A DNA stretch of 9,302 bases from a virus. Its lineage: Duplodnaviria > Heunggongvirae > Uroviricota > Caudoviricetes. Made by a program: the position numbers and the translations under genes. The stretch is taken from the IMG/VR virus record IMGVR_UViG_2711768034_000012. One strand, written 5' to 3'. The notes under the pieces were generated by a model. That model was given only the letters and a program-made list of their open reading frames with translations. It was not told the DNA's origin and did not search any database. This document shows positions 1 through 9,302 of this stretch, piece after piece (position 1 is the first letter of the stretch; every line of letters begins with the position of its first letter).

Positions 1-267
1 TGTTCAGCAGATTATCAGGCGCAACTGAAGCGGCATAATCTGCGTGGAAGTATGAGCGCAAAAGGTTGCTGCTACGATAATGCCTGCGTGGAAAGCTTCT
101 TTCATTCGCTGAAAGTGGAATGTATCCATGGAGAACACTTTATCAGCCGGGAAATAATGCGGGCAACGGTGTTTAATTATATCGAATGTGATTACAATCG
201 GTGGCGGCGGCACAGTTGGTGTGGCGGCCTCAGTCCGGAACAATTTGAAAACAAGAACCTCGCTTAG
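1..267 (+). CDS. insF: IS3 transposase OrfB (InsF, DDE integrase-type), C-terminal fragment; N-terminus lies outside the window
   Basis: Open frame from window base 1 to the TAG at 265-267. The ORF-track protein 52..267 is the tail of the same frame. Confidence 0.88.
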
Positions 268-297
268 GCCTGTGTCCATATTACGTGGGTAGGATCA
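259..297. repeat. IS3 right terminal inverted repeat (about 39 bp)
   Basis: Terminal sequence after the transposase stop; identified from the recalled IS3 end sequence. The partner repeat is outside the window. Confidence 0.65.
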
Positions 298-386
298 ATC
301 CCCGGTTCAAAGCTCTGCTGAACAATTGCGATCTTTTCCTGTGTGGTACGCCGTCTGCGTTTCTCCGGCCCTAAGACATCAATCAT
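298..386 (-). pseudogene. insC: IS2 OrfA (InsC) 5' fragment, interrupted after about 29 codons by IS3
   Basis: Minus-strand ATG at 386-384 translates as [29 protein letters not shown], then runs into the IS3 end at 297/298. Confidence 0.8.
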
Positions 387-477
387 CTGTTCTCCAATGA
401 CTAGTCTAAAAACTAGTATTAAGACTATCACTTATTTAAGTGATATTGGTTGTCTGGAGATTCAGGGGGCCAGTCTA
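298..477 (-). mobile_element. IS2 left end (IRL plus the start of orfA/insC) in inverted orientation, truncated by the IS3 insertion
   Basis: The reverse complement of 298-477 reads TAGACTGGCCCCCTGAATCTCCAGACAACCAATATCACTTAAATAAGTGATAGTCTTAATACTAGTTTTTAGACTAGTCATTGGAGAACAGATGATTGATGTCTTAGGGCCGGAGAAACGCAGACGGCGTACCACACAGGAAAAGATCGCAATTGTTCAGCAGAGCTTTGAACCGGGGAT, which is the IS2 left end as I recall it. Confidence 0.85.
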
Positions 478-828
478 ACTGTATGTCACGGGCATACAGG
501 AAAAGACATCATGCTCGGTAAAACGTATACCAAAGCAGAATGCAAAGCACTCTTGAATAAAGACCTTGCCACTGTCGCCAGACAAATTAACCCGTACATC
601 GAAGTCGATATACCGGAAACAACGCGCGGCGCTCTTTACTCATTCGTTTACAACGTGGGTGCTGGCAATTTCAGAACATCGACGCTTCTTCGCAAAATAA
701 ACCAGGGCGATATCAAAGGCGCATGTGATCAGCTACGTCGCTGGACATATGCTGGCGGTAAGCAATGGAAAGGTCTCATGACTCGTCGTGAGATTGAGCG
801 TGAAATCTGTTTGTGGGGTCAGCAATGA
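478..828 (+). pseudogene. Phage endolysin R (P21/DLP12-type lysozyme, GH24 family), 3' portion only; 5' part severed by the IS2/IS3 insertions
   Basis: From 478 the frame reads [116 protein letters not shown], matching the C-terminal two thirds of P21-type SAR endolysins. The membrane-anchor and catalytic-Glu region is not present in this copy. The track ORF 343..828 gains its N-terminus by reading through IS2 sequence. Confidence 0.82.
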
Positions 829-1289
829 ACAGAGTAACCGCGATTATCTCCGCTCTGGTTATCTGCATCATCGTCTGCCTGTCATGGGCTGTTAATCATT
901 ACCGTGATAACGCCATTACCTACAAAGCCCAGCGCGACAAAAATGCCAGAGAACTGAAGCTGGCGAACGCGGCAATTACTGACATGCAGATGCGCCAGCG
1001 TGATGTTGCTGCACTGGATGAAAAATACACGAAGGAGTTAGCTAATGCGAAAGCTGAAAATGATGCTCTGCGTGATGATGTTGCCGCTGGTCGTCGTCGG
1101 TTGCACATCAAAGCAGTCTGTCAGTCAGTGCGTGAAGCCACCACCGCCTCCGGCGTGGATAATGCAGCCTCCCCCCGACTGGCAGACACCGCTGAACGGG
1201 ATTATTTCACCCTCCGGGAACGACTGGTAATGATGCAGGCCCAACTTGAAGGTGCTCAGCAATACATAACCGAACAGTGTTTAAAGTAA
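825..1289 (+). CDS. rz: Rz-type i-spanin (inner-membrane spanin subunit)
   Basis: ATG at 825 overlaps the endolysin stop (ATGA). Protein [23 protein letters not shown]... has an N-terminal TM helix followed by a charged coiled-coil periplasmic domain and matches Rz/RzpD-like proteins. Lysis-cassette synteny R-Rz-Rz1. Confidence 0.85.
1045..1230 (+). CDS. rz1: Rz1-type o-spanin lipoprotein, embedded in the +1 frame of Rz
   Basis: 61 aa [24 protein letters not shown]... with a lipobox (VVGC) and a proline-rich mature region ([15 protein letters not shown]); lies entirely inside Rz. Confidence 0.85.
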
Positions 1290-6592: not shown

Positions 6593-6611
6593 TTGTCAGG
6601 AGTTTTAATAA

Positions 6612-8132
6612 ATGGCAGAGCAAACCTCGCGTCTCGCAATAATTATTGATAGCACTGGAGCAAAAAATAATGCTGACAATCTGACCTCCTCATTAGTCAA
6701 AATGACGCAGGCCGGGGAAACTGCTGCAAATAGCGCAGGGAAAGTGACTAAGGCAACAGAAGATGAGAAGAACGCGCTCGCAAAATTAAAAGCAGCTATT
6801 GATCCAGTTGGTGCCGCAATTGATACTGTCGGTCGACGCTATTCTGAATTAAAGAAATTTTTCGATAAAGGGCTTATTGATAAAGAAGAATATGAATTTC
6901 TTGTCCGTAAACTTAATGAAACCACAGAGGAATTGAGCGGGGTTGCGCAAGCGCAGAGAGAAGCCGAGAAGGCCGGAAAACTTGCTGCCGCCCAGCAGGA
7001 AGCGCAGGCTCAGGCCTTTCAAAGAATGCTGGACAAGATCGACCCTCTGGCTGCGGCGCTAAGAAATCTTGAACAACAGCAGGATGAACTTAATGCTGCG
7101 TTTGCATCCGGGAAAATAAATGGTTCTCAGTTTGAGAATTATAGCCGAAAAATACAGGAAACACGGCGAGAGCTTACCGGAGAGGCTCAGGCAGAGCGAG
7201 AAGCAGCAAAAGCGCATGATGAACAGGTTGCTGCTTTGCAACGTCTGATTGCTCAACTTGACCCTGTCGGAACTGCTTTTAATCGTCTGGTAGAACAACA
7301 GAAACAGCTCAATGAAGCAAAAGCTAAGGGGATGCTCTCTCCTGAAATGTATGAGGAACTTTCTGGAAAACTTCGTGCTATGCGGAGTGAGCTTGAGGTT
7401 ACTCAATCTCAATTAAGCAAAACCGGAATGTCGGCAAAACAAACGGCTTTTGCTATGCGCATGTTGCCTGCACAAATGACGGATATTGTTGTTGGGTTGT
7501 CCACTGGTCAGTCGCCTTTTATGGTGTTAATGCAGCAGGGCGGCCAGCTAAAAGATATGTTCGGTGGGATTGGCCCGGCGATCAAAGGTGTTGGTTCTTA
7601 TGTGCTGGGATTAATTAATCCTTTTACCCTGGCCGCAGCAGCCGTTGGCGTCTTAGGGCTGGCTTACTATAAAGGCTCTCAGGAGCAGGACGAATTTAAT
7701 AAATCTCTTATTCTTACCGGAAATCAGTTGGGGACAACCAGCGGGCAATTGGCCGATATAGCTCAACGTGCCGGGAATGCGGCTGATTCGACAACTGGCG
7801 CTGCGGCGGCAGTATTAAACCAGCTTGTGCGTTCGGGAAAGGTAGCGAGCAGTTCGCTGGAGCAAGTGACGACAGCGATAGTAAAAACGAGCGAAGTAAC
7901 AGGAATATCAACCGAACAACTGGTTAATGACTTCAATGAAATTGCAAAGGATCCTGTCAGTGCCATATCAAAACTTAATGATCAGTACCATTTTCTGACA
8001 ATTGCGACTTATAACCAGATTAAGGCGCTACAGGATGAAGGGAACCAGCAGGAGGCCGCCCGCATTGCGACAGAAGCATACTCATCCTCAATGATCCAGC
8101 GCACCAACCAGATTAAAGAAAATCTTGGTTAA
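6612..8132 (+). pseudogene. Tail tape measure protein, N-terminal about 506 aa only (truncated)
   Basis: SD AGGAG 6598-6602, ATG 6612. Coiled-coil N-terminal region with repeated (K/Q)(I/L)DP.(G/A).A motifs, then a hydrophobic Gly-rich segment ([51 protein letters not shown]) typical of lambda-family tape measure proteins. It ends at about 500 aa, whereas such proteins are usually 800 aa or more. Confidence 0.78.
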
Positions 8133-8152
8133 CGAGAGAGGTACACCGACAA

Positions 8153-8341
8153 ATGGCAGCGACGCACACACTCCCTCTGGCGTCACCAGGCATGGCACGC
8201 ATCTGCCTTTACGGGGATTTACAACGATTTGGCCGCCGCATCGATCTGCGTGTGAAAACGGGGGCCGAAGCCATCCGAGCGCTGGCCATGCAGATCCCGG
8301 CGTTTCGTCAGAAACTGAGCGACGGCTGGTATCAGGTACGC
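8153..8341 (+). pseudogene. Tail tip assembly protein I (lambda gpI-like), N-terminal 63 codons only
   Basis: MAATHTLPLASPGMARICLYGDLQRFGRRIDLRVKTGAEAIRALAMQIPAFRQKLSDGWYQVR matches the lambda gpI N-terminus as I recall it. After YQVR the frame diverges and stops at 8411-8413. Confidence 0.65.
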
Positions 8342-8388
8342 CAGGTGACAGTAACATCATTAACGACAATGCCCGCAGATTGCATCAT
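8332..8388 (-). pseudogene. sitB: sitB (Mn/Fe ABC transporter ATPase) 5' remnant: 18 codons then a stop
   Basis: Minus-strand ATG at 8388-8386 overlaps the sitA stop (TAATG) and reads MMQSAGIVVNDVTVTWRT*, consistent with the first beta-strand of SitB/YfeB-type ATPases. No Walker A follows. Confidence 0.5.
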
Positions 8389-9302
8389 TATTTCTCCCTT
8401 TTCCCGGCTTTAATTCCCTGTACCAGCGTACTGGTAGTAACCTTCAGAAGGTCGATATACGTAGGTACCGGGCCGTTTTCTGTGCTCAGGGAATCGACAT
8501 AGAGTACACCGCCGTAGTGCGCGCCGGTTTCACGCGCAACCTGACGCGCTGGTTTATCGGAAATCGTACTCTCGCTAAAGACTGCCGGGATATGATTTTT
8601 CTTCACCATATCAACAACCTTACGTACCTGCTGCGGCGTGCCTTGTTGATCGGCATTAATCGGCCACAGATAAAGCTCTTTTAGCCCCAAATCGCGTGCG
8701 AGATAAGAAAAAGCCCCTTCACTGGTGACCATCCATCGCTGATTCTCAGGGAGTTCAGCAATCTGCTTACGCAGGGGGGCAAGGGTTTGGGTAATCTTGG
8801 CTTTATAAGTATCGGCATTACGTTGGTAGGTTTGTGCATTTGCCGGATCGTATTTTATCAACGCATCACGAATATTATCGACGTAAATCAGAGCATTATC
8901 TGGCGACATCCAGGCATGGGGGTTAGGTTTGCCCTCATAGGGGCCTTCAGTGATCCCTACTGGCGTCACACCCGAAGAGACAATTACTTCTGGAACCCCA
9001 TTAAGATGCTGGTAAAAGCGTTGGAACCACAATTCCAGATTCATACCATTGGCGAGAATCAGTTGTGCCCCCTGCGCACGTTTAATATCGCCAGGGGTAG
9101 GCTGATACTCATGAATTTCTGCACCGGGCTTGGTTATGGATGAGACTTCTGCAGCATCTCCAGCCACGTTTTTGGCCATATCTGCGATGATGGTAAATGT
9201 TGTAATGACCTTGAATTTTTCAGTTGCACTCGCCTGAAATGCGATCGAGCAGGTGAGGGCGAGGCACCCCAAGAGCATGGTTACTTTTTTTATTGAGTAC
9301 AT
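8388..9302 (-). CDS. sitA: Periplasmic Mn2+/Fe2+ ABC transporter substrate-binding protein (SitA/YfeA/MntC family, TroA-like)
   Basis: 304 aa with a signal peptide (MYSIKKVTMLLGCLALTCSIAFQASA) and conserved family blocks (KFKVITTFTIIADMAKNVAGD, ITKPGAEIHEYQPTP, NPHAWMSPDNA, SEGAFSYLARDLGLKE, YLWPINA, FSESTISDKPARQVARETGA). The ATG is the last three bases of the window, so the true start could lie just outside. Confidence 0.85.
   Translation of the reverse strand: MYSIKKVTMLLGCLALTCSIAFQASATEKFKVITTFTIIADMAKNVAGDAAEVSSITKPGAEIHEYQPTPGDIKRAQGAQLILANGMNLELWFQRFYQHLNGVPEVIVSSGVTPVGITEGPYEGKPNPHAWMSPDNALIYVDNIRDALIKYDPANAQTYQRNADTYKAKITQTLAPLRKQIAELPENQRWMVTSEGAFSYLARDLGLKELYLWPINADQQGTPQQVRKVVDMVKKNHIPAVFSESTISDKPARQVARETGAHYGGVLYVDSLSTENGPVPTYIDLLKVTTSTLVQGIKAGKREK

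Follow-up and report, generated by a model that had tools for sequence, protein, structure and literature searches.

Probable persistence of a ParB-TAGT gene pair by adjacency to trkG in a decaying Rac-type prophage of Escherichia coli

When a prophage has lost or broken most of its structural genes, does the intactness of the remaining genes indicate that the host selects for them? This question is raised by a stretch of phage DNA of 9,302 nucleotides (nt) (IMG/VR virus record IMGVR_UViG_2711768034_000012), hereafter called the window, in which the K+ transporter gene trkG is followed by two overlapping genes for a ParB-like protein and a TAGT-family glycosyltransferase (hereafter the pair), and which ends with the metal transporter gene sitA. 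An earlier note on this DNA had proposed that the intact open reading frames (ORFs) are host-useful cargo maintained by selection and that the broken ones are structural genes of the phage. When intactness was judged from the sequence (translation and full-length homologues, with annotation flags set aside), the inventory was confirmed: trkG, the genes for ParB and the GT-A enzyme, sitA and the spanin genes Rz/Rz1 are full-length compared with their homologues, and the endolysin, terminase, tape measure and I genes are broken to the extents given in Table 1. The division into useful and structural genes was not, since Rz/Rz1 are lysis genes, three phage ORFs (hyp69, the YdaY-like gene and the PHROG 1189 member) are also intact, and sitA is an orphan. 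We consider it probable that the window derives from a decaying Rac prophage in which trkG is protected, the pair persists by its adjacency to trkG, and sitA is an accidental survivor.

The window is what remains of the late region of a Rac-type lambdoid prophage, and it occupies the usual Rac locus beside uspF-ompN. Positions 845-3275 and 5787-7546 align to the annotated Rac prophage of MG1655 at 99.1% and 99.4% identity, and the window is collinear with the K-12 Rac late region (Rz/Rz1-trkG-ynaK ... ydaY-tape measure) at ~99% identity. In contigs with identical junctions, the right flank is uspF-ompN-nifJ-ldhA-ydbH (Usp-porin-PFOR), the same as in K-12 and other loci. The exact TAGT protein of the window is annotated as Escherichia coli in the protein database, and the window represents an E. 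coli lineage that is absent from the 5,426 complete RefSeq genomes searched. A Shigella lineage, which the nested insertion sequence (IS) elements had brought to mind, was rejected because the identical proteins in the database carry an E. coli annotation. Erosion of prophages through IS insertion and deletion is already known, and here it is seen at a well-known locus.

The first evidence comes from the retention of each gene in the population. Presence and absence were counted in 5,426 complete E. coli genomes, and any match was distinguished from a match with at least 80% coverage. With this threshold, 1,539 of the 1,551 genomes that carry trkG have it complete and 12 have it in part, and the pair was complete in 889 of the 1,580 genomes with any match (56%) and partial in 691. 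The segment from terS through terL to the portal gene was complete in 737 of 904 genomes, and that from the major capsid protein (MCP) gene to the tail tube gene in 708 of 803. Retention drops monotonically with distance from trkG (1,539, 889, 737 and 708 genomes), and the complete pair is found in at most ~57% as many genomes as carry trkG. The pan-genome comparison that the earlier note had suggested as a check was therefore not in its favor, since the pair is barely more retained (889) than terminase-portal (737) or capsid-tube (708). The sampled loci suggest that these sets of genomes largely coincide, and in that case ~80% of the complete pairs would be accompanied by complete capsid and tail genes.

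The second evidence comes from the positions at which deletions end. Partial matches were taken as deletion end points, which are visible whichever way the deletion ran, and this makes the comparison free of the survivorship bias of carrier counts. End points were found in 691 genomes within the 1.7-kb pair, in 167 within the 3.8 kb of terS-portal, in 95 within the 3.9 kb of capsid-tube, and in 12 within the 1.5 kb of trkG. Expressed as genomes per kb of query, the density was ~400 in ParB/TAGT, 44 in terS-portal, 24 in capsid-tube, 14 in sit and 8 in trkG, and it was still ~150 per kb in ParB/TAGT after subtraction of the K-12 and B laboratory strains (extrapolated from their share of the sampled rows). 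When 60 evenly spaced rows were sampled from the ParB+TAGT ranking, 27 were truncated, and 25 of these 27 retained the trkG-proximal end (query start 1). The end points in the pair lay at 231, 254, 349, 421 (two rows with different partners), 426, 438, 496, 779, 917, 1258 and 1477, that is, at least 12 different positions in the 60-row sample, which represent many independent events. The pair was disrupted in 30 of 60 sampled rows and trkG in 2 of 40 (Fisher p 8e-7), and without the laboratory strains the figures were 15 of 45 and 2 of 30 (p 0.01). This pile-up of end points in ParB/TAGT, which stops at trkG, is the pattern expected if trkG is protected and the pair is expendable, and protection of the pair would predict the reverse. 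For a domesticated gene, we looked for retention above that of the neighbouring phage genes together with a depletion of end points. ParB/TAGT did not show this combination, and trkG showed depletion relative to its flanks (12 of 1,551 carriers partial against 691 of 1,580 in the adjacent pair).

Protection of trkG agrees with what is known of its product. The gene encodes a full-length TrkH-family membrane subunit (TIGR00933, 413.5 bits against a cut-off of 331) and is 99.5% identical in nucleotide sequence to trkG of K-12. The K-12 TrkG protein has a known K+ transport function with TrkA/SapD, and its RefSeq name is Na+-dependent K+ transporter. From this known function, the depletion of end points and a ratio of non-synonymous to synonymous substitution (dN/dS) of 0.15, we infer that selection protects trkG, which is the sole gene here with population evidence of protection. 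In 4 of 59 IMG/VR loci trkG has an apparent frameshift, each time within an A/T homopolymer and twice with inserted Ns; these were treated as likely sequencing errors.

In contrast to trkG, the pair is frequently damaged in relatives of the window. INACTIVATING lesions in relatives are of several kinds, and the pair is deleted, split by an IS, frameshifted or interrupted by a stop codon in several strains. Strain HKUOPY1 has an IS3 inside ParB. In strain 63-2, TAGT has a stop codon and a 1-nt deletion, and in strain A1.S1.160 it has a 1-nt insertion; in both strains the terminase, portal, capsid and tail genes are complete. A broken TAGT beside complete structural modules is the reverse of the pattern proposed in the earlier note. 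Strain 3PT, the closest relative of the block among those examined (99.7% identity over 478-3802), has wholly lost TAGT, kept capsid genes including MCP, and orphaned its sitA. In strain EC12, a single deletion runs from ParB nt 421 to sitA nt 621, and trkG is intact. In addition, at least 24 protein-database clusters of E. coli TAGT begin at residue 1 and break at residues 199-283, many of them being fused to domains of tail proteins. The retention gradient, the end-point pile-up and the many independent lesions together indicate that the pair decays with the phage and that trkG is the anchor. The earlier note had itself named inactivation of the cargo genes in close relatives as the evidence that would speak against it, and such inactivation was found for the pair (K-12, HKUOPY1, 63-2, A1.S1.160 and 3PT) and for sit. 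As a separate observation, the breaks in TAGT cluster at residues 230-239, with fusion partners that include tail tube, tail fibre and NlpC/P60 domains, and these residues may be a preferred deletion end point.

The dN/dS comparison of cargo and structural genes, also suggested in the earlier note, did not separate the two groups (0.12-0.15 and 0.06-0.21). Using pooled pairwise Nei-Gojobori estimates over unique intact copies, we obtained 0.15 for trkG, 0.14 for ParB, 0.115 for TAGT and 0.09 for hyp69, compared with 0.21 for terS, 0.09 for terL, 0.09 for portal, 0.13 for the minor head gene, 0.06 for MCP and 0.19 for the tube gene, and with 0.14 for ydaY and 0.13 for rrrD. All these genes bear the mark of evolution inside working phages, and there is no contrast in dN/dS between cargo and structural genes. 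Changes private to the window were counted as 0 non-synonymous and 1 synonymous (0N:1S) in ParB, 2N:0S in TAGT and 1N:1S in trkG; these counts, with three changes in the pair, are too few for a conclusion. Two TAGT substitutions, L24W (window 3872-3874, private to the window lineage) and R76H (window 4028-4030, common to the window lineage and one other locus), affect codons at which almost no other variation is seen among family members with as little as 60% identity. Two changes at conserved positions would be expected with a probability of ~0.2 by chance, which is not significant and leans to relaxed constraint, and judging from these residues the TAGT enzyme of the window may already be impaired. 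Rare alleles of the pair that are restricted to one class of prophage were 11N:5S in degraded prophages and 26N:44S in those with intact terminase and portal genes (p 0.027, with small counts), which hints at relaxed constraint in the degraded class. This test was dropped as a means to separate trkG from the pair, since both show the same trend, which may only reflect the young age of the mutations.

How, then, might the pair have remained whole? The window has five junctions, which correspond to two nested IS insertions and three deletions; the earlier note had given at least four, and its junctions are real although the count is higher. They lie at 298/299 (IS3|IS2), 477/478 (IS2|rrrD), 5535-5541 (terS|tail tube, with an overlap of 7 nt and ~9.0 kb gone relative to the complete prophage of locus L010), 8131 (TMP|K, with ~3.4 kb gone relative to locus L001) and 8337-8341 (I|sitB). 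IS2 entered the endolysin gene and IS3 then entered that IS2, and the deletions account for the last three junctions, running from terS to the tail tube gene, from TMP to K and from I to sitB. The order of two of these can be read from a metagenome contig (L019, 9035-10555), which has the identical TMP|K junction and has kept the genes for portal, capsid and tail tube upstream; the TMP|K deletion is thus older than the terS-tube deletion. The region to the right of trkG would be expendable, and deletions there would be tolerated until they reach trkG. Between the IS2 insertion and the first deletion lies the contiguous block 478-5541 (rrrD', Rz/Rz1, trkG, ParB, TAGT, hyp69 and terS'), in which dead and intact genes are mixed, and ParB and TAGT would be intact as the first 1.85 kb of this block beside the trkG anchor, with selection at the level of the host unneeded. 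We used a simple placement model, in which three deletions are placed uniformly such that 5.5 kb is retained to the right of trkG up to sitA, and asked how often the 1.85 kb adjoining trkG stays whole. The probability was ~0.29; a whole pair therefore calls for no special explanation, and the pattern does not go beyond chance. Purifying selection on the pair would have acted while the phage was alive and would have ended at its death; selection in the live phage accounts for a low dN/dS of the pair, the same as that of capsid and terminase genes.

The survival of sitA can be described in the same way. On the reverse strand, the sitA stop codon is followed by ATGATGCAATCT...CACCTGGCGTA (sitB nt 1-52) and then by gene I in antisense, and sitC and sitD are absent from the window locus. 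Elsewhere, the full layout (locus L021) is tail fibre genes, then sitD-sitC-sitB-sitA, then uspF, and the whole sitABCD operon (at least 80% coverage) is present in 2,337 of 2,384 sit-carrying E. coli genomes (98%). Because the ATPase and the permeases are absent, the Sit transporter encoded at the window locus, the cargo with the clearest use to a host, is broken, and the intact sitA is no sign of a working Sit transporter; it would have survived since the third deletion stopped 52 nt past its stop codon. The locus resembles the SitABCD island known as PAI sit, in that the window sitA is 100% identical to annotated E. coli sitA and lies in a phage-derived, IS-rich setting, and differs from it in that the operon is reduced to sitA and 52 nt of sitB. 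PAI sit of Shigella and pathogenic E. coli is described as embedded in phage-derived, IS-rich DNA (Fisher et al. 2009, as reviewed in PMC7545054). A comparable loss is present in strain CM2010-0578/1, which kept the pair, has a truncated sitB and lost sitCD. As a side observation, the end of the sitB remnant (nt 52, ...CACCTGGCGTAC) is identical in the window (8337-8341) and in strain 3PT (L104, ~10964-10967), with gene I in antisense as the partner in the window and a head gene in 3PT; one end point with two partners suggests either a recurrent breakpoint or a two-step history.

Several observations weigh against this interpretation. The genome counts are not independent, and 15 of the 27 truncated rows are laboratory derivatives (13 of K-12 and 2 of B), which inflate the number of genomes but not the number of deletion events. 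Carrier counts miss any genome in which trkG was lost along with its neighbours; this affects the absolute retention of trkG but not the end-point argument. The complete pair is present in ~150 more genomes than terminase-portal (889 vs 737), an excess that the positional gradient also predicts, and several prophages that are plainly degraded (L002, L004, L021 and the window lineage) have both of its genes intact, so that a weak host-level benefit of the pair in some lineages is conceivable. Rare alleles of trkG show the same trend as those of the pair (7N:3S in degraded prophages vs 15N:28S, p 0.07). Finally, the source genome may have a further copy of sitBCD at another site, such as a plasmid.

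An unlikely alternative is that the whole region, trkG included, decays neutrally and that trkG is intact only as a young cassette. The synonymous divergence (dS) of trkG is 0.018, compared with 0.117 in ParB, 0.065 in TAGT and 0.106 in hyp69 (4-6 times lower synonymous diversity than in these neighbours), and identity is at least 99% in 1,517 of 1,555 trkG records. In addition, trkG is absent from 21 of 80 related phages, which is consistent with a recent acquisition, and its rare alleles in degraded prophages are mostly non-synonymous. TrkG is also said to be functionally redundant with TrkH in K-12 (a finding attributed to Schlosser et al. in 1995). Against neutral decay of trkG, at least 12 independent right-side deletion ends fall in the 1.85 kb beside it, and only 12 genomes have a partial trkG compared with 691 for the pair. 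In K-12, deletions reach ~580 bp to the left and ~390 bp to the right of trkG and none enters it, and its dN/dS is 0.15. Youth does not explain this difference because the flanks, which are linked to trkG in the same prophages, have been hit repeatedly.

We regard it as very unlikely that ParB and TAGT are host-beneficial cargo, for example for DNA modification or defence, kept by selection at the level of the host. Both ORFs are full-length in the window and in the degraded prophages mentioned above, the pair is complete in more genomes than terminase-portal, ParB is intact in 79 of 80 IMG/VR loci (which were all selected for an intact TAGT), and the family-wide dN/dS is 0.12-0.14. These points are outweighed by others. 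The pair is complete in only 56% of its carriers and has the highest end-point density of the segments tested; it is deleted in K-12, and elsewhere it carries an IS3, frameshifts and a stop codon, some of them beside complete structural genes, with TAGT lost in 3PT. TAGT has no match in PADLOC, the dN/dS of the pair is the same as that of capsid and terminase genes, and TAGT has two substitutions at conserved positions. Moreover, the block is tied to terS in unrelated phages, which argues for a phage function. Judged by the evidence that the earlier note had itself called for, the host-cargo proposal is largely refuted. What stands of the claim that selection keeps the cargo is the part on trkG; the part on ParB/TAGT (889 of 1,580) and that on sitA, whose operon is destroyed, do not stand.

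That the mosaic is an assembly or chimera artefact has a negligible probability: misassembly at repeats could in principle produce five junctions and nested IS elements within 9.3 kb, but three of the junctions are deletions between unique sequences, and the shortened tape measure protein encoded across the 8131 junction is present on at least 24 other contigs (NCBI, ENA and Logan), including a 4.6-Mb contig, several of which reproduce the whole gene order of the window, so that the arrangement recurs in independent assemblies. The TMP|K junction had no match among the one-genome-per-species contigs.

Persistence of the pair by adjacency to a protected trkG, which we prefer, bears on how defective prophages are read. 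Bobay, Touchon and Rocha reportedly described the decay and domestication of defective prophages in PNAS in 2014. The window is like such prophages in its inactivation by IS elements and deletions, in the retention of a host-useful moron (trkG) and in the low dN/dS of the surviving genes; nothing essential is unlike, and the present data add a gradient with distance from an anchor and a pile-up of end points beside trkG. An intact gene in a decaying prophage is weak evidence of selection if it adjoins a truly protected neighbour. The coordinates of all features, which were mapped by combining the list of ORFs with scans against Pfam and PHROG and with alignments to annotated E. coli genomes, are collected in Table 1.

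Table 1. Features of the window, with their positions, strands and the evidence for each assignment
Feature	Position	Strand	Evidence or remark
IS3 3' end (transposase C-terminal part, stop at 267, terminal repeat)	1-298	+	Inserted in IS2; 100% identity to annotated IS3 of L002
IS2 left end (terminal repeat and first insC codons), cut by IS3	299-477	-	Identical to K-12 IS2A left end
rrrD-type endolysin gene, 3' fragment, nt 148-498 of 498 (lacks 147 nt, first 49 codons gone)	478-828	+	blastn against intact rrrD; Pfam Phage_lysozyme from profile position 17
Rz spanin gene, 154 aa, intact	825-1289	+	Pfam Phage_lysis 178.8 bits
Rz1 lipoprotein gene, 61 aa, embedded in Rz, intact	1045-1230	+	Pfam Rz1 69.5 bits
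trkG, TrkH-family K+ transporter subunit, 485 aa, intact	1427-2884	+	Pfam TrkH 479.9 bits
ParB/Srx N-terminal-domain protein gene, 262 aa, intact; full-length form of K-12 YnaK	3022-3810	+	Pfam ParB_N 29.3 bits (cut-off 26.3); PHROG 620 E 3e-90
TAGT-family (PF20691, 'GREB1-related') GT-A glycosyltransferase gene, 310 aa, intact, overlaps ParB stop	3803-4735	+	Pfam TAGT 120.5 bits; PHROG 842 E 8e-102
hyp69 small ORF, 69 aa, intact	4713-4922	+	PHROG 309 (terminase small subunit) E 3e-17
terS 5' fragment, nt 1-616 of 1095, ends at deletion junction	4926-5541	+	blastn against intact terS; PHROG 51
Tail tube gene, last 94 nt	5535-5628	+	Alignment to L001
YdaY-like tail assembly chaperone gene, 149 aa, intact	5689-6138	+	PHROG 313 E 5e-46; Pfam Phage_YdaY
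Small conserved phage ORF, 77 aa, intact	6213-6446	+	PHROG 1189
Tape measure gene (TMP) 5' half, ~1,520 of 3,234 nt, 506 of ~1,077 codons	6612-8131	+	Pfam TMP_2 276 bits; alignment to L001
Tail gene K 3' end (to 8255), overlapping first 63 codons of gene I (8153-8341)	8131-8341	+	Alignment to L001 20536-20746; Pfam Lambda_tail_I on 86-aa ORF
sitB remnant, first 52 nt, fused to gene I antisense strand	8337-8390	-	Compared directly with intact sitB
sitA, SitABCD Mn/Fe substrate-binding protein, 304 aa, intact, orphaned	8388-9302	-	100% identity to annotated sitA in L004 and L104; NCBIfam metal-SBP matches

If the pair is not cargo of the host, to what does it belong? ParB-TAGT is a phage module of the packaging-proximal late region, and for this reason its intactness in the window says little about selection at the level of the host. 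The ParB-TAGT-hyp69-terS block is found in E. coli prophages that lack trkG and differ in lysis cassette and head module (L012-L014), and 21 of 80 IMG/VR loci with the block lack trkG. In Yersinia and Pantoea, homologues with 73-75% identity occur in the order ParB_N, TAGT, small ORF, terS, terL and portal, and a homologue with 65% identity lies directly upstream of a GpA-type terminase. The trkG-ParB-TAGT-terS block was also found in deposited phage genomes. In the loci compared, hyp69 always lies between TAGT and terS, and it resembles part of the terS profile.

The TAGT protein matches its family profile far above the cut-off (27.5 bits) over positions 4-205 of 205, and the D102-D103-D104 motif, which is invariant in a 14-member family alignment down to 60% identity, is present in the window protein. 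The family (PF20691) includes the T6-type second glucosyltransferase, to which the window protein is related by its PHROG 842 assignment (beta-glucosyl-HMC-alpha-glucosyltransferase, where HMC is hydroxymethylcytosine) and by the DDD motif. T6-like phages use TAGT for di-glucosylation, in which it acts on glucosyl-hydroxymethylcytosine DNA (PMC13390438). Unlike the T6-type enzyme, TAGT of the window is partnered by a ParB/Srx protein and its locus immediately precedes terS in temperate phages. Neither the window nor the flanks inspected in relatives (5-12 kb; E. coli, Yersinia, Pantoea and metagenomic) contain a gene for TET/JBP, a hydroxymethylase or a first glucosyltransferase. As a minor observation, TAGT has 310 residues in E. 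coli and ~285-290 in other Enterobacterales, and the extra ~22 residues (4670-4735) overlap the start of hyp69.

For ParB, assignment to a ParABS partition system is not supported: only its ParB/Srx N-terminal domain has a match, scores against the NCBIfam partition models fall far short of the cut-offs, and no ParA was found in the window or related loci. Its residues 10-141 match the N-terminal domain of PADLOC MTase_II (E 1e-38) and PHROG 498 (E 4e-51), as in phage ParB-methyltransferases. Unlike these, the window protein has no methyltransferase domain, its C-terminal 120 residues have no recognised domain, and the gene that overlaps it encodes a glycosyltransferase. PADLOC gave no defence-system match for TAGT or hyp69, a sequence search of the PDB had no match for TAGT and, for ParB, matched only generic Spo0J/ParB N-domains, and a literature search gave nothing relevant on ParB with TAGT or on GREB1 with phage.

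From these domain matches and the gene order, the most likely reading is that the pair would serve a phage-level modification function tied to the packaging region. ParB/Srx, TAGT and the small ORF form a conserved block of three genes immediately before terS in many temperate phages of Enterobacterales. More specifically, and only tentatively, this block could be a modification module that has yet to be characterised and that may glycosylate phage DNA or a packaging protein. By analogy with phage ParB-methyltransferases, the ParB-like domain may target DNA in such a module, which would be linked to packaging and have no hydroxymethyl-pyrimidine pathway. If this is true, the window would hold a silent, decaying copy.

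Compared with the cryptic prophage Rac of K-12 (rzpR-rzoR-trkG-ynaK-ydaY-ynaA/tmpR), the window has the same chromosomal neighbourhood and gene order, trkG is intact in both, and nucleotide identity is ~99% over Rz-trkG-ParB 5' end and over ydaY-TMP 5' half. The two differ in their sets of deletions. In K-12, Rz is truncated, TMP is cut at nt 935, and ParB breaks off at nt 254 and continues into ydaY, a fusion that gives the 87-aa 'YnaK'; TAGT, hyp69 and terS are absent, as is the sit operon, and stfR-tfaR-pinR lie at the right end. In the window, by contrast, ParB and TAGT are full-length and the endolysin gene is interrupted by IS2/IS3. The K-12 protein has a consequence for annotation. Many intact 262-aa ParB genes are labelled 'ynaK, incomplete, missing C-terminus' by PGAP, the NCBI pipeline (for example L001 8545-8802 and L004 7545-7802), apparently because the K-12 reference YnaK (87 aa) is itself a deletion product. 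Thus, K-12 'YnaK' makes the pipeline mislabel full-length ParB genes as pseudogenes. By these flags ParB would also be broken in O78-3 and CM2010, and both were rejected as lesions because translation gives full-length 262-aa ORFs.

The lysis cassette of the window is incomplete: the holin gene is absent, the endolysin lacks 49 N-terminal codons as a result of the IS2 insertion, and Rz/Rz1 alone are intact. Since Rz/Rz1 encode spanins, they are not cargo, and their dN/dS values are 0.46 and 0.49, respectively (overlapping genes). In a 4.6-Mb contig of the window lineage (L015, 4191-4619), Rz has two 1-nt deletions, one of which is also in Rz1; one of the two lies in a run of C, and they represent either real spanin decay or sequencing error.

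With a GC content of 34-40% compared with ~49% in its flanks, trkG is a low-GC moron cassette in a slot between the lysis genes and ParB, and it looks younger than the surrounding phage backbone, or recently swept through. The same slot (window 1290-3021) holds enterotoxin LT-II A/B genes in E. coli Ceylon31 (L012, 9390-10527) and in one Yersinia prophage, and other genes in a Pantoea prophage (the slot loci besides L012 are L105, 2180-3332, and L106, 1017-3599). The interval from Rz to ParB thus appears to be a general slot for cargo (moron) genes upstream of ParB-TAGT-terS.

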